Source: a virus (Duplodnaviria; Heunggongvirae; Uroviricota; Caudoviricetes). From it: a stretch of DNA of 64,000 nucleotides. Position numbers and translations under genes: made by a program. Below, piece by piece: positions 9,670 to 61,422 of this stretch. Below the pieces are notes generated by a model that was not told where the DNA came from, did not search any database, and worked only from the letters and a program-made list of their open reading frames with translations. Each line of letters opens with the position of its first letter. Positions within the stretch are counted from its first letter, which is position 1. Location: IMG/VR virus record IMGVR_UViG_2718218172_000010; one strand, 5' to 3'.

Positions 9670-9880
9670 AAACGGTTTGCGGGAAAAGGAGAGTTAAGTA
9701 GAATTGCTGCGGGTGCTTGAGGCTATCTGCCTCAGGCATGAACACCAAAAGGCAGATAGAGAAAAGCCCCAGTTAACATTACGCGTCCTGCAAGACGCTT
9801 AACATTAATCTGAGGCCCAATCTATGTCTCACAAATGTAGGTTAGCCTCTTACGTGCCGAAAGGCAAGGAGAAGCAGGCT

Positions 9881-10036
9881 ATGAAGCAGCAAAAGGCGAT
9901 GTTAATCGCCCTGATCGTCATCTGTTTAACCGTCATAGTGACGGCACTGGTAACGAGGAAAGACCTCTGCGAGGTACGAATCCGAACCGGCCAGACGGAG
10001 GTCGCTGTCTTCACAGCTTACGAACCTGAGGAGTAA
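9881..10036 (+). CDS. hokD: Hok-family type I toxin (HokD/RelF-like, 51 aa), with overlapping mok-like frame from 9824
   Basis: MKQQKAMLIALIVICLTVIVTALVTRKDLCEVRIRTGQTEVAVFTAYEPEE; upstream fold-back elements resemble the plasmid hok locus at 61123-61422. Confidence 0.75.
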   Translation: MKQQKAMLIALIVICLTVIVTALVTRKDLCEVRIRTGQTEVAVFTAYEPEE

Positions 10037-29130: not shown

Positions 29131-29195
29131 ATGTAAAAACAGCAGCTCAGTTTCGTGAGCTGCTCAAACTCAAAAATCCCGCAGGAGTATTGTGA
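28902..29195 (+). CDS. tail assembly chaperone -1 frame extension
   Basis: -1 frame opens at 28887 right after an in-frame TGA (28884-28886); T-run 28892-28899; ends at tape-measure start. Confidence 0.45.
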   Translation: MRLVDKHTGADGTDDAGSQWNVEQSHFILESYGLDCFLADIEVCRQFWRDGEHIISDILDYSAGAGFRDICADSGLNVKTAAQFRELLKLKNPAGVL

Positions 29196-31255
29196 TGGCT
29201 GGTAACCAGATGCCAGTTCTGACGCTGGACGTTAATGAAGAACACCTCAAGCGGCTTGAGGCGATATTTGAAAAGTATCGCAACGGACTGATGATTGGCC
29301 CTGCCGGGACACCGCTTAAAATGCCTTCAAATACAGGTCAGGGAGGTGGCGCCCGGCAGACAACCACAGGCGGAGAAGCCAATCAGGCTCCCAGGAAACC
29401 ATCTTCACCTGCGCCCACCGATGGACGTTTAATGGATGAAAAAGGGCGCTTTGTCGGTAGCGGAAAAACACCTGATTCGCTGGTGAGCAACTATAAAGGT
29501 CGCGGCGAAACGATGTTTGATAAGTATCTCAGTAGTCTGGGTAAAAACGCCAAACAGACGCTGAAAACTTACAAGCAGATCAATTCTACGCTACGGACGA
29601 CCACTTCGAGATTAAACAACCTGTTTAAAACCACCGTATCGTGGGGGACAAAACTTGCGGTTATGGGCGTTGCCGGGCCGTTCGGCTTTGGCATGATGTC
29701 CCGTAGTGTTGTAGAGAAACAGAAAAATGCTGATGAATTGCAGGCAACGCCAGGAGAGTTAAAGGCGGCAGAAAGCACTTATTCGCCTTATTTTTCCGGT
29801 GTTGGCAATGTGCTCAATACACTGGCAGCAGCACAAAATGATATATCGCATCCTGCCCGCGTCGGCCTACTTAATCTGGGGCTAAATCCTGATAAAAACG
29901 CGACTGAAAACCTGCCTGTATTCCTGAAAAAGGTTGCAGCGCTGGCAAAGGAATATCAGGGAACTGGTCTTACCCAGAGCAATTTCAGAGGAATGGGGCT
30001 TGGATGGGTAAATTTTGGTCTTACTAACCAGTTAGTCAAATATCAGGACAAAATACCTGAACTGAACAAAGAGTTTTCGTTACGTGCAGCACAAAATGAT
30101 TCGTTACTGACCTCTGCACATACAAGTAAATATCAGAATCTTACCAGTAACTTAGAAAATAACTGGGATCGACTTACCAGTGGGTTTCAGGGAGCGATGT
30201 CGGGTAATTCTGAACAACTGATTGGAATATCTAATGGCGTCACGAATGCTGCCCTGAATTTCATGAACGGTGAGAACTTTAAAAGGATTCTGACAGATGT
30301 AGAAACGGGGCTGGATAAACTTGGTAAGTACGTTAATGGCCCGGATTTTAATAACGACCTGAACAATTTTGCCGAAAACGTTGCAAAGGTCACCAAAGCT
30401 CTTGGCGGATTTGTTGGCTTTGCGGTTGAACATCCCTGGCTTTTTGGGGCCGCAGTGCTTGCCGGGCCATCAAGAGTTGGTGCTGTGGCAGCTACAACAA
30501 CCGGAGTTGCCGCCCGTGTTGTAGGCGGAAGCCTTCTAGGGGCTACAGCTGGAACAGTAGCAGGATTGGCTATTCCTACGAATAACACACCTACCACCAG
30601 TGAGGAAATGAAAGGGCTGGAAGGCCGTTTTAATTTTGAATATTTTAATGAAGTGCAGGAGTGGCAAAAAAACAATCCTGGCAAGGTCTGGCCTGGAGGA
30701 TTGCAGAAATATTCGAACAATGTAAACAGATCAACATATTTATCCAGAGGGATCAGGAATAACAATCCCGGAAACCTTAATTTCGCAGGACAAAAAGGGG
30801 CTACTCTGGAATCAGGGCCAAATGCCCGTTTTGCCAGCTTCCCGACGATGCTGGAAGGTATCGCCGCCTTAGATCGGCAGGTCATGCTATACCTGAAACG
30901 AGGCAAAAATACGATTGATCAGATTATTGATATTTATGCCCCTTCATCTGATGGAAATAACACATCGTCCTATAAAAGCTATCTCTCTCAGTACACTGGA
31001 TTAGGTGTTAAGGAGAAAATCGATGGTTCTAATTTTGAGCTAATGAGAAAGCTAATTCAGGGCATTATTAACCATGAAAATGGGGCCGCCGCTCGTGCTG
31101 TAAGTGGCGATGATGTGATGCGGGCGCTGGCAATGAACCGGGGGAACGTATATTCACCAAATAATGCTTCTCAGGTAATCAGGCTCGAAGTTCAACAAAA
31201 ACCAGGTTCAGATATACTGGCACAACTCGCCGGAATGCAACAAATACCGGGGTAA
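29195..31255 (+). CDS. tail tape measure protein
   Basis: 686 aa with Gly/Ala-rich hydrophobic segment, downstream of frameshift chaperone pair; AGGAG SD. Confidence 0.65.
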   Translation: MAGNQMPVLTLDVNEEHLKRLEAIFEKYRNGLMIGPAGTPLKMPSNTGQGGGARQTTTGGEANQAPRKPSSPAPTDGRLMDEKGRFVGSGKTPDSLVSNYKGRGETMFDKYLSSLGKNAKQTLKTYKQINSTLRTTTSRLNNLFKTTVSWGTKLAVMGVAGPFGFGMMSRSVVEKQKNADELQATPGELKAAESTYSPYFSGVGNVLNTLAAAQNDISHPARVGLLNLGLNPDKNATENLPVFLKKVAALAKEYQGTGLTQSNFRGMGLGWVNFGLTNQLVKYQDKIPELNKEFSLRAAQNDSLLTSAHTSKYQNLTSNLENNWDRLTSGFQGAMSGNSEQLIGISNGVTNAALNFMNGENFKRILTDVETGLDKLGKYVNGPDFNNDLNNFAENVAKVTKALGGFVGFAVEHPWLFGAAVLAGPSRVGAVAATTTGVAARVVGGSLLGATAGTVAGLAIPTNNTPTTSEEMKGLEGRFNFEYFNEVQEWQKNNPGKVWPGGLQKYSNNVNRSTYLSRGIRNNNPGNLNFAGQKGATLESGPNARFASFPTMLEGIAALDRQVMLYLKRGKNTIDQIIDIYAPSSDGNNTSSYKSYLSQYTGLGVKEKIDGSNFELMRKLIQGIINHENGAAARAVSGDDVMRALAMNRGNVYSPNNASQVIRLEVQQKPGSDILAQLAGMQQIPG

Positions 31256-31927: not shown

Positions 31928-32190
31928 CAACGTTAATTCCTTTCAAACCGGACGGGCGAGGTCCGTTTCAGTTCACGGCCAGAATTGGAGAATATGAAAC
32001 ATTCGCCCGCGTTCCGTTTAATCTGTATGCAAATCGTTACTACCTGGAACTGAAAGACAGTTCTGGCGACGTGATTGTGTACATGCCGTTGATCGCGTCA
32101 CCTGACAATTACGACATCAATCTGGCGCTGCCTTGTTCACCGGGGAAACTTGTTTTTCGCGAAAGTACGAATCAGTTTGAGGTTTCGTAA
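31924..32190 (+). CDS. small tail protein
   Basis: 88 aa. Confidence 0.4.
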   Translation: MTTLIPFKPDGRGPFQFTARIGEYETFARVPFNLYANRYYLELKDSSGDVIVYMPLIASPDNYDINLALPCSPGKLVFRESTNQFEVS

Positions 32191-33197
32191 TGCGTTATTA
32201 CCGACTGGAAATTATTAATCCTAAAACAGGCAAGCCGCCTGTGGATAGCAATGGAAAACCCATTGGACCTTTTGATACCAGTGAAACACCAGGATGTGGA
32301 TTGCATGTCGAATTTGACTTTGAAGTAACTGGTTTGGATGTAGTCTGTTCGGGTACGATGCTGACGATCTATGGATTACCAATTGACATGCTGAAGCAAA
32401 GCGTGAGTTTGCAGGGTTGTCTGGTCCGTATGAAAGCAGGCTTTGTTCAGGGATTACCACTGGCAAATAAGGATCAACAGGGGGAGGTAATCTATGGTGA
32501 AATTTATCTGGCCTATGCCAACTGGATCGGTACGAACCAGACTTTGAACCTGGTAATAAATCCAAGCATACGCAAAACCGATGACGGTAAACCTTTTTCA
32601 ATTGAGGGGCAGGGGGAAGCAGGGGAAAGGGTAGGCGATGTTTTAGTCCGCGCTTTGCAAAAAGCATATCCCAATAAATTGATTGATTGCACAGTCAGCG
32701 ACAACCTGGTTTTGCCAGAGCCGTGGACGGGAAAATATACGGAGATTGGTTCTCTGGCTATGGTCGTAAAAAACGCCTCTATTGCGATGATGCGTAATGA
32801 AAGGTATAGCGGAATCGCCATCAGTATTCTTTCCGACAGAATACGAATTTACGATAACGCGTCAGCAAAGTGGGGTGAGCCAAAAACAATTCATGCCCAT
32901 GAACTGGTCGGGCAGCCGACATGGATAGCACCGTTTACCGTCAGTTTCAAATGTCCTATGAGAGGCGATATCAGATGTGGTGATGTGGTTAAACTGCCGG
33001 AGGGGCTATATTCTGGCGCTGCGTCGATTGTGATGGCTAATACAACGGCACCCAGCGTTATCGCAAAAAATTCGACCACGTTCACCGGGAAATTTCTTGT
33101 GAAATCGGTCAGACACATTGGTTCGTATCTGACAGCTGATGGCGATGCCTGGGTGACGGTATTTGAGGCATATGCTGAGAACTGGGCGAGGGTGTAA
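32190..33197 (+). CDS. baseplate hub-like protein
   Basis: 335 aa. Confidence 0.4.
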   Translation: MRYYRLEIINPKTGKPPVDSNGKPIGPFDTSETPGCGLHVEFDFEVTGLDVVCSGTMLTIYGLPIDMLKQSVSLQGCLVRMKAGFVQGLPLANKDQQGEVIYGEIYLAYANWIGTNQTLNLVINPSIRKTDDGKPFSIEGQGEAGERVGDVLVRALQKAYPNKLIDCTVSDNLVLPEPWTGKYTEIGSLAMVVKNASIAMMRNERYSGIAISILSDRIRIYDNASAKWGEPKTIHAHELVGQPTWIAPFTVSFKCPMRGDIRCGDVVKLPEGLYSGAASIVMANTTAPSVIAKNSTTFTGKFLVKSVRHIGSYLTADGDAWVTVFEAYAENWARV

Positions 33198-33910
33198 TGT
33201 CAAACGCTCAAAAATTACCGTTTCTCCGAACGCTGTCGGAGATGATGACCAGTTCTGGCAACCAGCAAGCCGAGCTTAAAGGACGCGAATTGCCCTGCCA
33301 TGTTGTCGATGTCAGTGGGCAGATAGTGACCGTTCAGTTTGATATGTTGCCAGAGGGGATCAACTTTCCGCAGATAACAATCCCTGTCGCCACATTCCCG
33401 TATATTCGTTACCCGATACAGCCGGGCGATCGAGGAGTAACAATTGCCGCAGATGTATCACTGCGCGGTGTGTCCGGATTGGGAACCGGTATGGCGACGC
33501 TCTCTTACTCGATGTCACTCACTCCACTGTTTTTCGTGCCACTGGCAAACAAGGACTGGTCCGACGAAGATCCGCAAAAAATCGTTTTGTACGGTCCGGA
33601 TGGCGCGATCCTCAAAACAGAGGACGGCAGTAGCTCGGTAACGGTGGCACCGGAAGAAATCAGGCTAAATTCGAAAGCTGTTTACCTCGAGGCCGAAGAT
33701 ATTTTCCTGAACGGGAAAATTCACCTCAACGGTCCAATCGTCCAGGACAAAGCCCAGATGAAGGATACAACAGCTTCGCTGATTGGCCCTCTCAAGGTCG
33801 AGAAGGATGCAGTTATCAACGGTGTGAGCGCCAGCGGCCACAGCCATGATGTGACCGGCGTTCAAAGCGGCAACAGCACGATCACGTCGAAGAAACCAAA
33901 TCCGGGTTAA
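33197..33910 (+). CDS. baseplate spike (gpV-like) protein
   Basis: 237 aa; followed by a terminator. Confidence 0.4.
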   Translation: MSNAQKLPFLRTLSEMMTSSGNQQAELKGRELPCHVVDVSGQIVTVQFDMLPEGINFPQITIPVATFPYIRYPIQPGDRGVTIAADVSLRGVSGLGTGMATLSYSMSLTPLFFVPLANKDWSDEDPQKIVLYGPDGAILKTEDGSSSVTVAPEEIRLNSKAVYLEAEDIFLNGKIHLNGPIVQDKAQMKDTTASLIGPLKVEKDAVINGVSASGHSHDVTGVQSGNSTITSKKPNPG

Positions 33911-33950
33911 TACCGGTTCATTTCACTTTAAATTCTATCCATAAAGCGAA

Positions 33951-33985
33951 AGCCCCGAACTGTTGCAGCAGTCGGGGCTTTTTGT
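33951..33985 (+). terminator. rho-independent terminator
   Basis: AGCCCCGA...TCGGGGCT 8-bp stem plus T-run. Confidence 0.45.
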
Positions 33986-34015
33986 TTCTGACCTTGAATA
34001 AGGCAAGGAGAAGTC

Positions 34016-34153
34016 GTGTTTGATTTTAGCAAACTGATTCGGGAGATTCGAGTTATGGCTGAAAAATTATCCACCTGGAAGTTTTTGCTTATTTGGTTGG
34101 TCTTTCTGATTCTGGCGTCTGGTTATTTTGTTGGCCAGATCCGATGGTGGTGA
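34016..34153 (+). CDS. 45-aa hydrophobic peptide (GTG start)
   Basis: AAGGAG SD then GTG; ...WKFLLIWLVFLILASGYFVGQIRWW. Confidence 0.25.
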   Translation: MFDFSKLIREIRVMAEKLSTWKFLLIWLVFLILASGYFVGQIRWW

Positions 34154-34160
34154 GGGCACG

Positions 34161-34508
34161 ATGAGAACATGGGGCCGCGTCACTGACGCGAACGGCAACA
34201 AAAAATGGGTTGCAGTAGAATCTGACACCAGCGGTGATTTCTCCTACGGCTGGCTGACGACGCTCATTCAGACGTTAAAGCTGGGGTTGGGGGAGTCGCC
34301 GTTTTACGCGAATTACGGCATTCCTGCGCAGCAGTGCATCGTGCAGCAGATTTACCCGGACTACTATGTGAACATGGTTCAGCAACAGTTTGCCGGGTAT
34401 TTTGCATCGCTGGCAATTTCAAAGGTAGATGGGGCAGAGAACCCCACCTATAACATCGATGTTGTGTTTTTTAACGGAACCAGTTACCGGACGCAGGTTC
34501 CGGTTTGA
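34161..34508 (+). CDS. hypothetical phage protein
   Basis: ATG at 34161 with GTGAGGG SD; 115 aa. Confidence 0.4.
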   Translation: MRTWGRVTDANGNKKWVAVESDTSGDFSYGWLTTLIQTLKLGLGESPFYANYGIPAQQCIVQQIYPDYYVNMVQQQFAGYFASLAISKVDGAENPTYNIDVVFFNGTSYRTQVPV

Positions 34509-35044
34509 GGCAAGTTTTCGGGTATCAATTGGGCCAGTGGCGTATTAAGAAGTTCATCGCGTGGCATGACAATCCATCCACTTTTGCGTAGTAAGTGAAT
34601 TGCCCATTCTGTGGTTATAACTGAGCCTGATTTGTGGTGCTCAATGTGGGTAACCGATCCGTTTCTGACGCGCATGATGATGTCAACATTCAGAGGGGGT
34701 TGTGTGCTGGTAGTTTCTTCGCGTAGTTTCTTCTCGCACTCGATGAAGTATCGGCGGATCTGGCGGCCTTTTTCGTTGCGTTCGACCATAGCCAGCTCTT
34801 TGGCGGTGTCCAGGGTGAGATGGTAGTCTTTGGCTGGTCTGCCTCTACCGATTTTTTCCCGATTTTGGGAAATAATCAAAAAGTCCTGATTTTCTACGAA
34901 TTCATACTCGCTGATTCGTTCGGTAATCCAAGTGGCAAAGCGTTTACCTACTTCGAGAAAGGCATGCAGATCGCGAGCGTTGCATAGAAGGATGGTTTCG
35001 TTCGAAATGGTTCCGTTGAACACGGTGATGAGTTGGGTGGTCAT
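34484..35044 (-). CDS. antirepressor-like protein on opposite strand (moron)
   Basis: ATG at 35042-35044 with AGAGG SD; MTTQLITVFNGTISNETILLCNARDLHAFLEVGKRFATWI...; inverted relative to tail genes. Confidence 0.5.
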   Translation of the reverse strand: MTTQLITVFNGTISNETILLCNARDLHAFLEVGKRFATWITERISEYEFVENQDFLIISQNREKIGRGRPAKDYHLTLDTAKELAMVERNEKGRQIRRYFIECEKKLREETTSTQPPLNVDIIMRVRNGSVTHIEHHKSGSVITTEWAIHLLRKSGWIVMPRDELLNTPLAQLIPENLPQTGTCVR

Positions 35045-35380
35045 AGTAACCTCTTTTGGCTTTTTTCGAATTGCCACTAACGTAGTGGCGCCGGGAGGTT
35101 CGAAACGGCCCAAAAGATACCGCGGACTTATTCCCCTTTCGGGTGTTGTATTCGTCGCCCTCCCGACATTGATCGGGGTTGTGATCGCACATATTGCCAT
35201 CACAAAAAAAGGCATAAAAAAACCAACACATTGTAGGGTGCTGGGTAATCAGCTTTTGGGGGAGGTTTCGACGCCTCATGCGTCCAATCATACTCAACTG
35301 GGCGCGGTTGTAAAGTATGAACTTGAACAGACATTAAGAATGGGTAAAATTTGTCCTCCTGTTTTATAAGGAGATTAAGG

Positions 35381-36127
35381 ATGTCTAAGTTAAAATTATT
35401 TGTAGTGTTTACCTTTTTATTACAAATAGGAACTGCGAATGCAGTATCTTTTGATTGCTCGAAAGCTAAATCATATTCTGAAAAGTTAATTTGCAACAAC
35501 AGTGAATTATCTGAACTTGATGATAAATTAAATTCTTTATATCAAAAAGTAAAGTTAGAGAGCACTGATAAGAAAGCTTTTAGAAAAATTGTTTCAGACT
35601 TGTGGAATGAAAGAGAGAAGTGCAAAACAGAATCATGTGTTCGACAATGGTATTCTAATGCATTCAGGGAATATTCATCTTTAAATGAAATTAATGAGAA
35701 CATAATCAATGAATCAGAGAATTACGCTGAATGGTATATTGATGGTGCGCTGATAATATTACCTCCATTGGAAGGTGTTAGTAAAAATAGATTCCTGATG
35801 TATGGCGATGATGGAACAATAGCTATTTTTATTGCTTCAAAATCTAAAGGTAATGGATTTTGCGATAATTCAGTGCAAATTGATGGCCCATTAGAATATC
35901 CACCAATTTTGATTAATGGTGAATATTATAAAACTTATAAATCATGCTTGTATGGAAATGGTTTTATAGTGCCAAAAACTGAAATTGGTAAAGCAGTTCT
36001 GAAAGAGTTGGTTATGAAAATGAAGCCTATAAAAATTTCTTTTGGAGACGGCGATGAATTTAACTATCCTCCATCAAATGTAAAAAGAATGCTTGAGAGG
36101 GTGGAAAAAATGAAACAGGCAAAATAA
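35381..36127 (+). CDS. secreted DUF1311 (LprI-like N-domain) protein, moron
   Basis: AAGGAG SD; signal peptide MSKLKLFVVFTFLLQIGTANA; Cys pattern FDCSKAKSYSEKLICNN...CKTESCVRQWY; low GC. Confidence 0.5.
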   Translation: MSKLKLFVVFTFLLQIGTANAVSFDCSKAKSYSEKLICNNSELSELDDKLNSLYQKVKLESTDKKAFRKIVSDLWNEREKCKTESCVRQWYSNAFREYSSLNEINENIINESENYAEWYIDGALIILPPLEGVSKNRFLMYGDDGTIAIFIASKSKGNGFCDNSVQIDGPLEYPPILINGEYYKTYKSCLYGNGFIVPKTEIGKAVLKELVMKMKPIKISFGDGDEFNYPPSNVKRMLERVEKMKQAK

Positions 36128-36135
36128 GTTAACTT

Positions 36136-36157
36136 AAAACCGCTTCGGCGGTTTTTA
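36136..36157 (+). terminator. rho-independent terminator
   Basis: CCGCTTCGGCGG hairpin plus T-run. Confidence 0.5.
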
Positions 36158-36169
36158 TATAGGGGATAT

Positions 36170-37396
36170 ATGTCAGAAATACCAATTACTATGACCAGTG
36201 CGGGTGCGCAGCCTACGCCACCCAATGATTTGCTCGCGAATCTTATCACCAGAGTTGCTGAAAAAGTACCTGGATATACAGCCAACCTTCCGGCAGGACT
36301 TATTACAGACCTTGCCAGCACGGCAGTAGGGGCGCTGGCATTAATAGACCAGGCGCGGGTGGACCTTATTAACTCTGTAAGCCCATACGGCGCGAATATT
36401 CCGTTACTGATGCAACTCGGAAACATATATGGAGCACAGAAGGGATTAAGTACAAATACGGCGGTATACGTGGTGTTTGAGGCGTTACCGGGGTTTGGTA
36501 TCCCTAAAGGATTTGTGGTTGGTGACGGTAACTACCAGTATGCAGTTTCCCGCGATACGGTGGTTCCGGAAAGTGGGCAGACTGAACCAGTCTACTGTGT
36601 GGCCACTACGTCAGGCTCATGGGCTGTACCGGAAGGGACCGTGACGCAGGTCATTACATCAGTACCAAAAGACCAGCCTGTAAAATGCACGAACCTAACC
36701 GCAGGGATGCCAGGTCAGGAGGCGCAAACGTGGGCATCTTACCGCGCCGAAGTCATGGAGTCCGGCATGTTTGGTGTGCAGGGAACACCGGATTGCTTTA
36801 AAGCGATGCTCAAATCAGTAAACGGTGTGCGAGAAAACCTGATTTCTTTTCGGCAGTCGTCGCTGGGGAAATGGGTTGCGGTTGTTGGTGGCGGTGATCC
36901 GTATGATGTGGCTTATGCGATTTACAAATCTGTACCGGATATTTCGAAACTGACCAACGATGTAAGCAATCCATCCGGTGCGGCAGTGGAAAAACGCACG
37001 GTTTCAATAACCGTTTCGCCGGACGTTTATCAGGTGCCGTTCGTTATCCCGTCATCACAAAACGTCATGGTGCTAATCACCTGGAACACGGTGTCTGATG
37101 ATTATGTTGATCCGGCGGGTATTGCTATGGCTGTGCAGCAAAACGTTGCTGATTACATCAATTCAATTGAAGTCGGACACCCGATAAATCTTCTGCGTAT
37201 CCAGGATATTTTTACCAGTTCCGTCAGGTTGCTGGTTGATGCGACGTTGATCTCAACAATCAGTGTGAGTATTGGTATTAACGGCCATATTGTTCTTCCG
37301 GCGAAAGACACAAGCCTGGTTTATGGCGATACCTATTCCTATTTTTCAACGGTGGCATCACAGGTTCAGGTCAACAAGCATGCAATATCTGACTGA
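36170..37396 (+). CDS. baseplate J-like protein
   Basis: 408 aa; AGGGGA SD. Confidence 0.5.
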   Translation: MSEIPITMTSAGAQPTPPNDLLANLITRVAEKVPGYTANLPAGLITDLASTAVGALALIDQARVDLINSVSPYGANIPLLMQLGNIYGAQKGLSTNTAVYVVFEALPGFGIPKGFVVGDGNYQYAVSRDTVVPESGQTEPVYCVATTSGSWAVPEGTVTQVITSVPKDQPVKCTNLTAGMPGQEAQTWASYRAEVMESGMFGVQGTPDCFKAMLKSVNGVRENLISFRQSSLGKWVAVVGGGDPYDVAYAIYKSVPDISKLTNDVSNPSGAAVEKRTVSITVSPDVYQVPFVIPSSQNVMVLITWNTVSDDYVDPAGIAMAVQQNVADYINSIEVGHPINLLRIQDIFTSSVRLLVDATLISTISVSIGINGHIVLPAKDTSLVYGDTYSYFSTVASQVQVNKHAISD

Positions 37397-38006
37397 GAAA
37401 ATTCTCCCTGCTTATCCATTTGCGCAGTACAGAGATGATCCGAATGTTGTTGCGTTCTTTGATGCATACAATGAAATTGCTCAGGAATACCTCGATTCAC
37501 TCAACAATCTGGCATTGCCATGCTGGACATCGGAATCAATAACCGGGCAATTACTGGACTGGATTGCACTCGGGATTTATGGCGTTGAAAGGCCTTTACT
37601 ACAGGTTTCCGAGGAGGCTATTGCACGCGGCGCATACGATACCATTGAATACAATACGATCCCGTATGCAGCAATGCGGAATTACGTTCCAGGGCAGGCA
37701 TCGTATGTCCCTGATGATTATTTCAAACGAATATTAACTTGGAATTTTTATAAGGCTGACGGTTCGCATTTCTGCATTGATTGGTTAAAGCGCCGTGTGG
37801 CACGGTTCATTCATGGGAAAAACGGAATAGACCCGCCATTGCAGCATACTTTTGATGTGAGTGTGACTGTATCGGACAGTGTTTTTTCTATTCAGATACC
37901 AGAGTATGGCGATGGCATAGGCTATTTTCTTAAAGATGCCATTGACCAGAAATATGTAAAACTCCCTTTTATTTATTCCTATGCAACAACGGTGATTCAA
38001 AAATGA
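37380..38006 (+). CDS. tail protein (P2 gpI-like position)
   Basis: ATG at 37380 (track start is TTG); MQYLTEKILPAYPFAQY... Confidence 0.45.
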   Translation: MQYLTEKILPAYPFAQYRDDPNVVAFFDAYNEIAQEYLDSLNNLALPCWTSESITGQLLDWIALGIYGVERPLLQVSEEAIARGAYDTIEYNTIPYAAMRNYVPGQASYVPDDYFKRILTWNFYKADGSHFCIDWLKRRVARFIHGKNGIDPPLQHTFDVSVTVSDSVFSIQIPEYGDGIGYFLKDAIDQKYVKLPFIYSYATTVIQK

Positions 38007-39089
38007 TTCTTGGATTTGGCAATAACGTTGTTTCAGCACTGGCTGGCGATATCACGACGATTCAGACTGATATTCCGGTGATGCCGGGCACGGGAGCTAA
38101 ATTTGCAAAATTGCTTTCTGCCGATTTTGAAAATAAATCGAACGGGCAACGCGTCTATGCAAAAATTACGCTTACCGATAATAAAGAGTCTGCATTTGAG
38201 ATTTGTCACCTGGTATCGGTAAGCGGTGATGTGTTGAAAGTCATTCGTGGGCAGGAAGGAACAACCGCGAAAGGTTGGTCCCTTAATGACGTTGTGGCTA
38301 ACTTTGCCACGCGTGGTTCGGAAAACCATTTCGTACAGATAGCGCAGCTTCAGAGTGGTCATTATATTGCGGGAGTTGCTGGCGGCACTGCAAACGCGCT
38401 GACTCTGGAGCTTCCCGCGACGTTTTTTGTTAATGGAGGTACAGACTGGACGCTACGAACCCCGATTATCGTTTTCCCCGTTCAGAACAATACCAATGCC
38501 GCGACACTTCAATTAACACTGGGCGGAAAGGTTCTTGGTACGTTCCCGCTTTATAAGGGGAACAAGTCCGAGCTGGTAGCGAACGATATCATTAAAGGCA
38601 TTCCCTTAATTTGTCTTCTTGATAGCGAGAAAAGCTATTTCAGCGTGATAAACCCTGGCAATATCTATTCAGATTTTGATCTGCGATATGTAAAAAAATC
38701 TGGTGATTTGATGACCGGAGAACTAAAAATCCGTGGTGTTAATGCACTGAGGATTTTCAACGAAGCTTTTGGCCTGATTTTTCGTCGTTCGGAAGAGTGC
38801 CTGCACTTTATTCCAACACAGGAAAACCAGGGTGAAAATGGCAATATTGGTCCACTTCGACCGTTCACTATTAATCTGCGGACGGGTGAAATATCCATGT
38901 CGCATAAAGTGTCTGTTGGCGGCGGTTCTCAGGTCAATGGTGCGCTGGGTATCGGTGTTCAGAACGCGCTGGGCGGTAACTCAATTGCTTTCGGGGATAA
39001 CGATACCGGCCTGAAACAGAATGGTGACGGCCTGCTGGATGTTTATGCCAATGGTCAGCACGTATTCCGTTTTCAGAATGGCGCGTTAC
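38003..39089 (+). CDS. tail fibre protein, 3' end lost in gap
   Basis: ORF open into the N-run at 39090; Gly-rich repeats. Confidence 0.5.
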
Positions 39090-39189
39090 NNNNNNNNNNN
39101 NNNNNNNNNNNNNNNNNNNNNNNNNNNNNNNNNNNNNNNNNNNNNNNNNNNNNNNNNNNNNNNNNNNNNNNNNNNNNNNNNNNNNNNNN
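39090..39189. other. assembly gap (100 N)
   Basis: Exactly 100 consecutive N. Confidence 0.95.
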
Positions 39190-39476
39190 ATTATCAGGCG
39201 CAACTGAAGCGGCATAATCTGCGTGGAAGTATGAGCGCAAAAGGTTGCTGCTACGATAATGCCTGCGTGGAAAGCTTCTTTCATTCGCTGAAAGTGGAAT
39301 GTATCCATGGAGAACACTTTATCAGCCGGGAAATAATGCGGGCAACGGTGTTTAATTATATCGAATGTGATTACAATCGGTGGCGGCGGCACAGTTGGTG
39401 TGGCGGCCTCAGTCCGGAACAATTTGAAAACAAGAACCTCGCTTAGGCCTGTGTCCATATTACGTGGGTAGGATCA
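39190..39476 (+). mobile_element. IS3-family transposase 3' end and right inverted repeat (fragment)
   Basis: Translation ...[21 protein letters not shown]...[22 protein letters not shown] to stop at 39446; terminal GTGGGTAGGATCA ending at 39476. Confidence 0.65.
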
Positions 39477-39596
39477 CATAACCTGAAATGGCACTAATGG
39501 CCAGAGCTTACTAATACATAATCCCTACAGGATGTAGCCACCAGTTTTGTTCATCCGGTATTCTGATTTGGTAACATGCTCCAGAAAGGAAGAAAT

Positions 39597-40829
39597 ATGT
39601 ACTGCAATGAATTAAAAGAATTTGCGCAAGAGCAGGAACAAAAACTTATCAGTGCGCTTGCTGATACCAGAGAGCACCCGTCCCCCGATGGTGAAACAAG
39701 AAGCCGGGATAATTATCAACGGGATTACGCGCGTATTCTGTATTCATCATCATTTCGCAGGCTGCAGGGAAAGATGCAACTTTTTGAAATTGATCCTGAA
39801 AAATTCAACAGAAACAGATTAACGCACAGTCTTGAGGTTGCTCAGATCGCCCGAAGTATCGCGTCAGACCTCAAACTGATTAACCCGGTGGTGGTTGAAC
39901 TGGCAGCGCTGGCGCATGACATCGGAAATCCTCCTTTCGGTCATTCCGGTGAAAAACTGCTTAATGAACTGTCTGAAGAAATCGGCGGCTATGAAGGTAA
40001 TGCACAGGCGCTACGTATCCTGAGAAAACTGGAGAAGAAATTTTCATACTGCAACGGATTAAATCTGACTCACCGTAGTTTACTTTCGGTTGTTAAGTAT
40101 CCCATCCCCCGCGCTGCAGCTACTGCCGGCAAGTTCATTTATGATGATGATTACTATTTTTACATTAACCTGCTTGCTGAAAATCAGCTCGATCTGAATC
40201 CCGGAGAGAAAACGATTGATGCGCAGATAATGGATCTCGCGGATGAGATTGCCTACGCCGCGCATGACCTGGAAGATGCCCTTAGCAGGAACATGGTCAC
40301 GATTGAAGATATTGAATATGAGTTTCAGATTTCTGACGAATTCCGGGGAGCGAGGGAACAGTTCAGGGAAATCGTTACTCAGTCGAGAAACACCGCTTTT
40401 CAGGCTAACTTACTGAAAACCTCAGAAGAATTTGCCATCATATTCCGCAAGGAGTTAACTTCAAATATTGTCAATCGCCTCGTTGCAGATATTTCTGTAG
40501 TAACGAACCTGAATGGTTTTCAGGAACTGGGGTTCGGGAAACTGAATGCGTTATCCGAAGGACTCAAAAAACTTCTCTTTAAAGTCATCATGCGAAAACG
40601 TAATATCCTCACCTATGAGTTCAGGGGAAATAAAATAATCAGGGATTTATATGACTTTTACAATGAAGGAGAGAATTATAAATTTCTGCCTCCTGAACTT
40701 AAATTCACCTTACCCCAACCAGATTCCTGTATATTTGAAATCAGCAAAAAACGAGCAGTGGTTGACTATATTTCAGGTATGATGGATACATTTGCAGTCA
40801 AGGAATGGGAAACTCACTGTCTGAAGTAA
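39597..40829 (+). CDS. HD-domain dGTP triphosphohydrolase-like protein (Dgt family)
   Basis: RLTHSLEVAQIARS, LAALAHDIGNPPFGHSGE, DLADEIAYAAHDLEDA; ATG with AGGAAG SD. Confidence 0.7.
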   Translation: MYCNELKEFAQEQEQKLISALADTREHPSPDGETRSRDNYQRDYARILYSSSFRRLQGKMQLFEIDPEKFNRNRLTHSLEVAQIARSIASDLKLINPVVVELAALAHDIGNPPFGHSGEKLLNELSEEIGGYEGNAQALRILRKLEKKFSYCNGLNLTHRSLLSVVKYPIPRAAATAGKFIYDDDYYFYINLLAENQLDLNPGEKTIDAQIMDLADEIAYAAHDLEDALSRNMVTIEDIEYEFQISDEFRGAREQFREIVTQSRNTAFQANLLKTSEEFAIIFRKELTSNIVNRLVADISVVTNLNGFQELGFGKLNALSEGLKKLLFKVIMRKRNILTYEFRGNKIIRDLYDFYNEGENYKFLPPELKFTLPQPDSCIFEISKKRAVVDYISGMMDTFAVKEWETHCLK

Positions 40830-56189: not shown

Positions 56190-56289
56190 NNNNNNNNNNN
56201 NNNNNNNNNNNNNNNNNNNNNNNNNNNNNNNNNNNNNNNNNNNNNNNNNNNNNNNNNNNNNNNNNNNNNNNNNNNNNNNNNNNNNNNNN
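56190..56289. other. assembly gap (100 N)
   Basis: Exactly 100 consecutive N. Confidence 0.95.
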
Positions 56290-60989: not shown

Positions 60990-61263
60990 TGCGGCAACAA
61001 TCATACAGATTACCCGTAAACAGCCTGAATGAGCGGGTTATTTTCAGGAAAAGTGAGTGTGGTCAGCGTGCAGGGATATGGGCTATGATGTGCCCGGCGC
61101 TTGAGGCTTTCTGCCTCATGACGTGAAGGTGGTTTGTTGCCGTGTTGTGTGGCAGAAGGACAAAAGCCCCGTAGTTAATTTTTCATTAACCCACGAGGCC
61201 CCTGCATGCTTAGACAACATCAGGATAGCCTCTTACCGCGCTTTGCGCAAGGAGAAGAAGGCC

Positions 61264-61422
61264 ATGAAACTACCACGCAGCTCTCTTGTCTGGTGTGTGT
61301 TGATCGTGTGTCTCACACTGTTGATATTCACTTATCTGACACGAAAATCGCTGTGCGAGATTCGTTACAGAGACGGATACAGGGAGGTGGCGGCTTTCAT
61401 GGCTTACGAATCCGGTAAGTAG
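61264..61422 (+). CDS. hok: Hok toxin (52 aa) with overlapping mok-like frame from 61123
   Basis: [52 protein letters not shown]. Confidence 0.85.

Follow-up and report, generated by a model that had tools for sequence, protein, structure and literature searches.

The stretch between the spike-like and baseplate J-like genes of a prophage was analyzed within a window of 64,000 nucleotides (nt), the whole sequence taken from IMG/VR record IMGVR_UViG_2718218172_000010, to which all coordinates refer unless another locus is named. Judged by its sequence, the interval is a piece of an Escherichia coli prophage that lies inside the baseplate operon of a contractile-tailed phage (myophage), and over 4.2 kb it is 100% identical to the chromosomes of the pig isolates E. 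coli cq9 and U90 and 99.9% identical to that of UMNF18. The left flank is a spike-like, gpV-like baseplate gene of 237 amino acids (aa; 33197-33910, + strand), which is conserved in all relatives, shows weak matches to TIGR01644 phage_P2_V and GpV Apex, and is annotated in relatives as bppV or baseplate protein. The right conserved flank is the baseplate J-like gene (36170-37396, +; PF04865, phrog_6). Between them lie a terminator hairpin, a gene for a 45-aa membrane peptide, a 115-aa baseplate-module gene, an AntA-family antirepressor gene on the opposite strand (ant), and a gene of low guanine-plus-cytosine (GC) content for a secreted 248-aa protein, hereafter the cargo gene. The original prediction had read this interval as one terminator-flanked island of morons, and each element that it listed was located in the list of open reading frames (ORFs) and in the sequence, at the coordinates given below.

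Two insertion slots around the 115-aa gene

The module is carried by 91 of 5426 complete E. coli genomes, with a spike-to-J span of 3.4 to 6.2 kb, and the phage records that come closest are those of Escherichia phage Rac-SA53 and Actinobacillus phage vB_Apl-pPE4 (PP818812.1, locus L001). The genes of the operon follow in the order hub, spike, 115-aa gene, J, DUF2612-like gene and fibre, and the 115-aa gene (34161-34508, +, ATG start) holds the gpW/gp25 position. Its product gives a full-length match to phrog_7986 and has homologues at 45-57% identity in Yersinia, Klebsiella, Pantoea and Shewanella phages. In four distant phages, the genes for the hub, the spike, a 110-115 aa protein and J are contiguous, with overlapping stop and start codons and nothing between them, and in two closer metagenomic relatives the space between the spike and the 115-aa gene is only 2 bp long. 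From these comparisons, the 115-aa gene is a core gene of the baseplate module and no moron. Since it belongs to the core, the interval consists, in one E. coli prophage lineage, of two insertion slots flanking this gene instead of a single island. Slot A (33911-34160), from the spike to the 115-aa gene, holds the terminator hairpin and the 45-aa membrane peptide gene, and slot B (34509-36169), from the 115-aa gene to J, holds the AntA antirepressor gene (-) and the gene of the low-GC secreted protein (+). The proposed moron island is thereby upheld for the cargo gene, with the ant and 45-aa genes accessory as well, but not for the 'small protein', as the 115-aa product had been called; conservation across related tail modules, which the prediction itself had set against its idea, was found for this gene only. 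The 115-aa protein has no Pfam or NCBIfam match, and no PDB match by single sequence or profile. Its assignment to the gp25/gpW family was considered and rejected, as the agreement is in position and size only, with no sequence match.

Slot A begins with an intrinsic-terminator hairpin at 33952-33985 (+), followed by a UUUUUGUUU U-run to 33993. The hairpin folds at -25.1 kcal/mol (z = -4.7), none of 200 shuffled sequences folds as well, and it is present, with compensatory changes in its stem, in all E. coli relatives that were examined and in a lambdoid copy. A simple terminator scan called neither of the hairpins that flank the interval, and the support for both comes from folding and from the same hairpin-plus-U layout in relatives; by folding energy and recurrence, the terminator predicted after the spike-like gene holds. 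Sub-threshold Rfam matches on this hairpin (sar, rimP leader, ctRNA and F6) were taken as chance hairpin matches. The accessory 45-aa gene (34016-34153, +) starts with GTG behind a AAGGAGAA ribosome-binding site, and its product has one C-terminal transmembrane helix and a full-length match to phrog_6632, so that the ORF, the ribosome-binding site and the membrane helix of the predicted hydrophobic peptide are all confirmed. Hairpin, ribosome-binding site and ORF recur together in lambdoid prophages, and in strain 55989 the endolysin gene lies on one side of them and Rz on the other. Most of the 809 E. coli records that match the 4.2-kb query at 80-90% (about 84% where sampled) are accounted for by this 193-bp stretch. 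Between the window and the lambdoid copy, the 45-aa gene differs by 12 synonymous and 5 conservative non-synonymous changes. Because the ratio of non-synonymous to synonymous substitution rates (dN/dS) is 0.08 between these two contexts, the ORF is a genuine gene as well as a small mobile unit. Its copies in lambdoid prophages (window 33961-34153; L008 3984-4196) are unannotated or labelled 'hypothetical'. After the hairpin, slot A of the E. coli relatives encodes one or two small peptides that span the membrane once, either of the 45-aa type or an unrelated pair of 55 and 54 aa, sometimes together with a Rha-family gene.

The left part of slot B is occupied by ant (35044-34484, -), which encodes 186 aa and whose 3'-terminal 25 nt lie within the 115-aa gene. 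Its product matches PF08346 at E = 2e-28 (99 bits against a threshold of 27) as well as PHROG anti-repressor families, which bears out the antirepressor-like gene predicted on the opposite strand. By domain membership it would be an AntA-type antirepressor, and antirepressor activity is predicted for it. Together with about 235 nt upstream, ant shares 78-79% nucleotide identity with Shiga toxin (Stx) phages, and this homology stops at 35277. The gene with its leader seems to be an accessory, mobile module, and some relatives have only a truncated or pseudogene form of ant.

In the right part of slot B, the cargo gene (35381-36127, +) begins with a signal peptide (35381-35443) and has AAGGAGA 7 nt before its ATG. 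A promoter-like site toward it, TTGAAC-16-TAAAAT, lies at 35323-35350 (+) and matches the consensus at 9 of 12 positions, and a terminator hairpin, CCGC-UUCG-GCGG with a U-run, lies at 36139-36163 (+), 6 nt before the ATG of baseplate J. This hairpin is modest (-10.3 kcal/mol, z = -1.9), and the same kind of hairpin with a U-run ends the homologous cargo genes in L016, L019, L018 and L031. The low-GC secreted gene was accordingly described correctly as having its own strong Shine-Dalgarno (SD) site and terminator. Its GC content is 0.31 in comparison to 0.47-0.49 in the flanking tail genes, as the GC profile proposed as a check shows, and the same contrast is seen in six other loci. Most relatives have other DNA in place of the cassette, which extends from about 35279/35317 to 36168, with homology breakpoints at 35278/35316 and at 36136-36169, where the match to all relatives resumes. 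At this site, Rac-SA53 carries two unknown minus-strand ORFs and vB_Apl-pPE4 carries one, strain JNU has an HSDR_N nuclease-like gene without ant, and other relatives have a 179-aa ORF or insertion sequence (IS) elements; Pfam gave nothing for the minus-strand cargo ORFs of Rac-SA53, vB_Apl-pPE4 and other relatives. Slot B of relatives also holds a YafO toxin gene after a 194-aa ORF, a possible toxin-antitoxin pair (L019 1140-2098), and a 386-aa HSDR_N nuclease-like gene (L007 1794-2954).

When presence and absence were checked, an LprI-family gene was found in 14 of the 91 related E. coli prophages. Twelve of these are of the 248-aa type, and two are a 356-aa variant with the same N-domain as the cargo protein and a different C-terminus. 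Compared with a variant that is about 10% divergent across ant-to-cargo (L032), the cargo gene shows 12 synonymous and 7 non-synonymous changes, and its dN/dS is 0.14 over the whole gene and 0.03 for the C-domain. This variant retains the promoter-like region (nearly identical in L032), the ribosome-binding site and the terminator. The cargo gene is under purifying selection.

Morons were defined from HK97 and HK022, with lom and bor of lambda as examples. Like the classical morons of lambdoid and other temperate phages, the cargo gene is an extra gene between genes that are adjacent in relatives, within a late structural operon, and it seems to share with them the deviant GC, the own expression signals, the terminator and an envelope product. 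Unlike them, it sits in a contractile-tail baseplate operon, in the space from the gpW-position gene to gpJ, beside a divergent antirepressor module. With neighbours that adjoin each other in relatives, a patchy occurrence, foreign GC content, a ribosome-binding site and a terminator of its own, and a coding sequence under purifying selection, the cargo gene appears to be a genuine moron-type insertion, an ordinary example of a well-known kind. For the interval as a whole, we put at roughly 70% the probability that the baseplate operon has been opened at two points, with a peptide unit in slot A and the ant module plus a divergent moron in slot B. In a lysogen, the moron would be transcribed independently from its own promoter-like site and insulated by the two terminators. 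During lytic growth, both terminators would be read through by RNA polymerase modified by the Q-like antiterminator of the same prophage (11316-11978; DUF1133 and a weak Phage_antitermQ match).

The structured leader of the antirepressor gene

The 5' leader of ant contains a structured RNA of 86 nt of the sRNA-Xcc1 type (35167-35082, -), which ends 37 nt before the ATG. It matches RF02221 with 72.5 bits against a gathering score of 53, over model positions 1-87 of 87, and identity with the sRNA-Xcc1 family is meant here as such a full-length covariance-model match above the gathering score. The motif stands 25-40 nt before the ant start codon in five relatives, twice in one Stx2 phage, and it is also found ahead of a Bro-N gene in another baseplate-slot cassette. 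The loop of its third hairpin, UCUUUUGG (35117-35110), is complementary to CCAAAAGA (35059-35052), which overlaps the SD site. The partner bases of the loop end in the 'AG' of this site, and compensatory changes keep the pairing across loci. In a second helix, the junction UUUCGAA (35105-35099) is complementary to UUCGAAA (35069-35063). Considering these pairings, we infer that the leader masks the ribosome-binding site of ant.

To place the leader among its relatives, IMG/VR was scanned with the conserved leader core and 79 unique instances were analyzed; the instances of the motif are the window copy (35082-35167, with partner bases 35052-35069) and those in L002, L004, L005, L013, L015, L019, L022 and L033-L152. 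Since helix length and register vary, pairing was judged by cognate and non-cognate controls and not by a column-wise covariation test. A perfect helix of at least 6 bp was formed by 63 of the 79 cognate pairs of loop and ribosome-binding site, in 38 distinct helix sequences, compared with 13% of the non-cognate pairs. The mean duplex energies were -14.6 kcal/mol and -9.2 kcal/mol, respectively. All 22 diverse downstream proteins that were sampled carry an antirepressor-type N-domain (six KilA-N, four P22_AR_N, four ORF6N, four Bro-N, three AntA and one Rha).

The sRNA-Xcc1 was published as a trans-acting small RNA (sRNA) of a Xanthomonas integron cassette (PMC2996969). Its motif is also reported upstream of symE in Xanthomonas integron cassettes (10.1101/2025.06.18.660453) and a passing mention places it ahead of an ORF6N gene in APSE phages (10.1101/2020.03.17.996009). 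While RF02221 is described as trans-acting, at least 79 phage loci have it 25-40 nt upstream of an antirepressor-type ORF, covarying with the ribosome-binding site of that ORF. Because loop and junction covary with the downstream ribosome-binding site, the leader would act in cis, and we see somewhat better than even odds that sRNA-Xcc1 is a widespread cis-acting translational control element, and no trans-acting sRNA, placed before six unrelated antirepressor-type families. Genes that set off prophage induction could then share one 'off switch' that responds to a ligand or a protein. The ant genes of P22, with its sar antisense RNA, and of Stx phages are likewise AntA-type, lie outside the immunity region and have dedicated RNA-level control. 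The P22 sar is an antisense RNA, whereas the present gene is apparently controlled by a structured 5' leader of the sRNA-Xcc1 family, through pairing with the ribosome-binding site of the same transcript. The ant leader is more novel than the secreted protein and is the by-product with the most potential in the interval.

Upstream of the leader, a hairpin with a T-run at 35213-35244 (-; -10 kcal/mol, z = -2.4), which also appears in the simple terminator scan, is a candidate insulator or attenuator. An equivalent hairpin with a T-run precedes the sRNA-Xcc1 motif in both AntA-type and Bro-N-type loci. Between the upstream T-run and the motif lies a palindrome, GTGAT-n-GCA-N5-TGC-n-ATCAC (35172-35196, -), which recurs at the same place in the AntA-type loci L002, L004, L013, L015 and L022, where both arms co-vary; it could be a protein operator or a further RNA hairpin. 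A promoter-like site toward ant, TTTACA-16-TATGAT (35314-35287, -), comes from a consensus scan only. No LexA box of the form CTGT-N8-ACAG was found near ant, and SOS control of the gene was discarded as unsupported for this reason.

Domains and possible role of the secreted protein

The cargo protein begins with the signal peptide MSKLKLFVVFTFLLQIGTANA, cleaved before VS at an AXA signal-peptidase I site with no lipobox. It is composed of a helical, DUF1311/LprI-like N-domain (about 35444-35695) and a rare beta-rich C-domain (about 35714-36124), and its six cysteines (26, 38, 81, 86, 161 and 189) are invariant or nearly so within their families. With Pfam LprI (PF07007), the match is at E = 0.016 and 16.0 bits, below the cut-off of 22, and covers residues 26-66 and model positions 1-47 of 106. 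A word-indexed homologue search gave the protein's own cluster alone, and an exhaustive HMMER search was used, which yielded 3476 relatives. Almost all of them match residues 1-105 only, with many and different C-terminal parts, and two small secreted proteins match residues 112-247 only. The N-domain follows the motif SFDC-x-KA-x4-EK-x-IC...LS-x2-D-x2-L-x3-Y...W-x2-RE-x-C-x4-C-x3-WY. Its profile retrieves 50 proteins, 20 of which have PF07007, and hhalign gives 99.7% (E = 2e-26); the link to PF07007 is transitive, as it was the query profile that had brought up the PF07007 set. The N-domain thus seems to be a peripheral member of the DUF1311/LprI superfamily, and the predicted 'DUF1311-type' label fails at the Pfam threshold and stands as a remote homology of the N-terminal third. 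In common with LprI/DUF1311 proteins, the cargo protein has the signal peptide, the cysteine/helix motif (SFDC-x-KA-x4-EK-x-IC...L-x2-LD-x2-L-x3-Y...W-x2-RE-x-C-x4-C in the form common to both) and four cysteines of the N-domain, which is helical in the AlphaFold model and may resemble the three-helix domain of PF07007. Unlike them, it is alike in the first third only and below threshold, has no MliC domain, and consists for the rest of the rare beta-rich domain. Matches to GapR_DNA-bd and A1S_1983 were below threshold and were dropped.

For the structure, AlphaFold gave an unusable model from the single sequence, with a predicted local distance difference test score (pLDDT) of 45, and a mean pLDDT of 75 with a 39-row alignment. 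The latter AlphaFold2 model has a helical N-domain and a beta-rich C-domain with a disordered linker between them. Foldseek against the PDB with this model returned nothing significant, and sequence and profile searches of the PDB returned nothing relevant for the cargo protein, the N-domain profile or the PF07007-positive set. In BFVD, the fold relatives are proteins named uncharacterised, 'LprI-like N-terminal' or DUF1311, from the virulent T4-like phages RB49 and KP15, from PhiKpNIH-6 and from Aeromonas phages.

The C-domain is represented by 7 clusters among 5.8 billion sequences, and all four of its readable loci are myophage tail or baseplate operons. C-domain-only proteins are encoded just upstream of baseplate J in L016 and L019, one of them following genes for a YafO toxin and a Bro-N protein, a homologue lies between hub and spike in L031, and a protein with both N- and C-domain follows the DNA-circulation gene of a Mu-like tail operon in L018. 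The GC content of these homologue genes is 0.31-0.39 against 0.47-0.53, and a hairpin with a U-run stands directly before the next tail gene. In the same type of tail module, gp22 of Klebsiella phage vB_Kpn_Chronis (L014 833-1525), a sewage isolate, has the same N-domain and another C-terminus. It is secreted, has a GC content of 0.32-0.36 against about 0.5, and is placed in another slot, between the DUF2612-like gene and the fibre.

As to what the protein does, it would be exported by Sec, fold in the periplasm with three disulfides and act on the cell envelope. There it could bind and block an incoming peptidoglycan-degrading or envelope-penetrating protein, a hypothetical target for which the tail tip of related superinfecting phages seems most plausible. 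The DUF1311-like N-domain would be a generic periplasmic scaffold and the C-domain the specificity element. In T5, llp lies beside the gene of the receptor-binding protein. T4 Spackle acts in the periplasm, where it inhibits the tail-spike lysozyme carried by superinfecting phages (PMC7677548), and T5 Llp is a phage superinfection-exclusion protein (PMC9586334); both are phage-encoded envelope proteins with a signal peptide that block the apparatus by which related phages enter, and they provide our preferred functional analogy. We prefer a protective envelope role because the C-domain travels with one kind of tail module and the fold has relatives in virulent phages. By this analogy, Spackle-like or immunity-like protection of the envelope is a tentative proposal, held at well below even odds, a related possibility being a role like that of the DUF1311 proteins that give immunity to cell-wall effectors (PMC12135965, PMC12981562). 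That the rare C-domain is a tail-lineage-specific, Spackle-like superinfection-exclusion module is a novel reading too, but weaker than that of the ant leader.

The annotation suggests a different role. PGAP names the protein 'lysozyme inhibitor LprI family protein', and the original prediction had argued from the DUF1311 domain to a lysozyme inhibitor and possible lysogenic-conversion factor, which would shield the lysogen from animal lysozyme and raise its fitness; the remote homology of the N-domain to PF07007, the predicted periplasmic location and the origin of host strains from pig, cattle and goat guts would agree with that. However, the LprI match is sub-threshold and covers half the model only, a Pfam search relaxed to E <= 10 shows no MliC (PF09864), virulent T4-like phages have fold relatives, and the cargo protein is no lipoprotein, unlike the bona fide inhibitors cited in PMC7933661. 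According to the same work, the MliC domain of Mycobacterium tuberculosis LprI suffices for lysozyme resistance, the DUF1311 label is without experimental support, and the periplasmic DUF1311 protein ScwA of Salmonella has no role in lysozyme resistance (PMC7933661). As the cargo protein has no MliC, MliC is what confers resistance in LprI, and ScwA has no such role, a shield against host lysozyme becomes quite improbable. The argument for an inhibitor, which comes down to about 85 DUF1311-like N-terminal residues with no MliC domain, is weak, and lysogenic conversion does not follow from a family that is not specific to such a function and has fold relatives in virulent T4-like phages. An orphan immunity protein, protecting the host from the cell-wall effectors of competitors delivered by a type VI secretion system (T6SS) or by contact, also seems unlikely. 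DUF1311 proteins with signal peptides are reported to confer immunity to lysozyme-like, cell-wall-directed T6SS effectors (PMC12135965, PMC12981562; Etsi4 in PMC12981562), relatives of the N-domain are fused to varied C-terminal domains including Ank repeats and inactive restriction-endonuclease folds, and the cargo gene is mobile and low in GC; yet a T6SS effector was found in none of the eight contexts examined for N- or C-domain relatives, and the C-domain is confined to phage tail operons.

The remaining two explanations would deny the gene an accessory function altogether. If the whole interval, including the 45-aa and 248-aa products, encoded tail assembly factors or structural parts, its location inside the baseplate operon, the true conservation of the 115-aa gene and the sighting of the C-domain family in tail operons only would be accounted for. 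We regard this as extremely improbable, given that distant and some close relatives without both insertions are complete, isolated phages, that 77 of the 91 E. coli relatives have no LprI-like gene, that a Sec signal peptide and disulfide cysteines misfit cytoplasmic tail assembly, and that the gene has foreign GC, a terminator after it and a neighbour on the opposite strand. It is also very unlikely that the cargo gene is a functionless, decaying passenger of illegitimate recombination. Adjoining ant genes are indeed truncated or pseudogenised in several relatives, and a Salmonella relative has an N-domain-only ORF of 122 aa followed by a separate ORF of 300 aa, but the frame of the cargo gene is intact at the dN/dS values given above, its cysteines are conserved, the variant, which has 19 substitutions in the coding sequence, still has the promoter-like region, the ribosome-binding site and the terminator, and the C-domain homologues are intact secreted ORFs in four other loci. 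Several results count against our own account of an expressed, protective moron. PADLOC gave no defence-family match for the four genes of the interval or for five cargo genes of relatives, and N-domain-only proteins are heterogeneous in context, with unrelated places on chromosomes and islands. No structural match to the C-domain was informative, and the confinement of this domain to tail operons could reflect mere exchange among related phages. The tape-measure protein of the window has no Pfam SLT match; tape-measure homologues have one, and relatives are annotated as lytic transglycosylase. Furthermore, the promoter match of the cargo gene is to the consensus only, and shuffled sequence has more such matches than this region; its downstream terminator is weak by energy alone (z = -1.9).

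Other features of the prophage and implications

The upstream part of the contractile-tail module contains the sheath gene (445 aa) and then the tube gene. The tape-measure gene (29192-31255) is followed by two small genes and the baseplate hub gene (32190-33197), and downstream of baseplate J lie a 208-aa gene and then the tail fibre. None of the four genes of the interval has a second copy elsewhere in the window. The record of vB_Apl-pPE4 shows 99.4% identity to the present E. coli prophage tail region (98-99.9% over aligned segments), and from this sequence Actinobacillus pleuropneumoniae looks doubtful as its host.

Between the Q-like antiterminator and a holin (13642-14034), at the position of Stx in Stx phages, the prophage carries a gene for a pertussis-toxin-S1-like ADP-ribosyltransferase (12366-13091, +; PF02917, E = 4e-15), followed by a 160-aa ORF (13102-13584, +) with no Pfam match. 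By sequence and arrangement, the pair looks like an ArtAB- or Plt-type prophage toxin. A second antirepressor-type gene with P22_AR_N and ORF11CD3 (14891-15460, +) is placed between the endolysin (14296-14679, Peptidase_M15_4) and Rz (15408-16079) genes. Rfam sok, the antitoxin RNA of hok/sok, is matched twice on the + strand, at 9711-9886 in the prophage and far downstream at 61095-61266 (121.7 and 92.6 bits, respectively). At 38003-39446, the tail-fibre ORF enters a block of 100 N (39090-39189), which is followed by a C-terminal fragment of an IS3-family transposase (rve_2, E = 5e-22); this block may mark an interruption of the fibre gene or a masking of the sequence, and a second block of 100 N lies at 56190-56289. 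Right after the IS fragment, where the tail region ends, a 417-aa protein with HD and HD_assoc, of the dGTPase-like phosphohydrolase type (39576-40829, +), may be a cargo gene of the prophage end or a defence gene.

Taken all together, the interval adds one more case of accessory genes lodged in a phage structural operon. It also corrects an annotation-driven assumption, since the name 'LprI family' does not imply a lysozyme inhibitor. The rare secreted C-domain, so far found only in myophage tail operons, is a testable candidate for superinfection exclusion. Slot B, from the gpW-position gene to gpJ, is a repeated cargo collector in this prophage lineage that can be mined, and the genes found there suggest that it gathers conflict-type cargo in general. 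If sRNA-Xcc1 is a cis-acting switch which hides the ribosome-binding site and which all antirepressor-type genes have in common, this Rfam 'sRNA' would have to be reclassified, and the leader would account for the silence of dangerous induction genes in many prophages.

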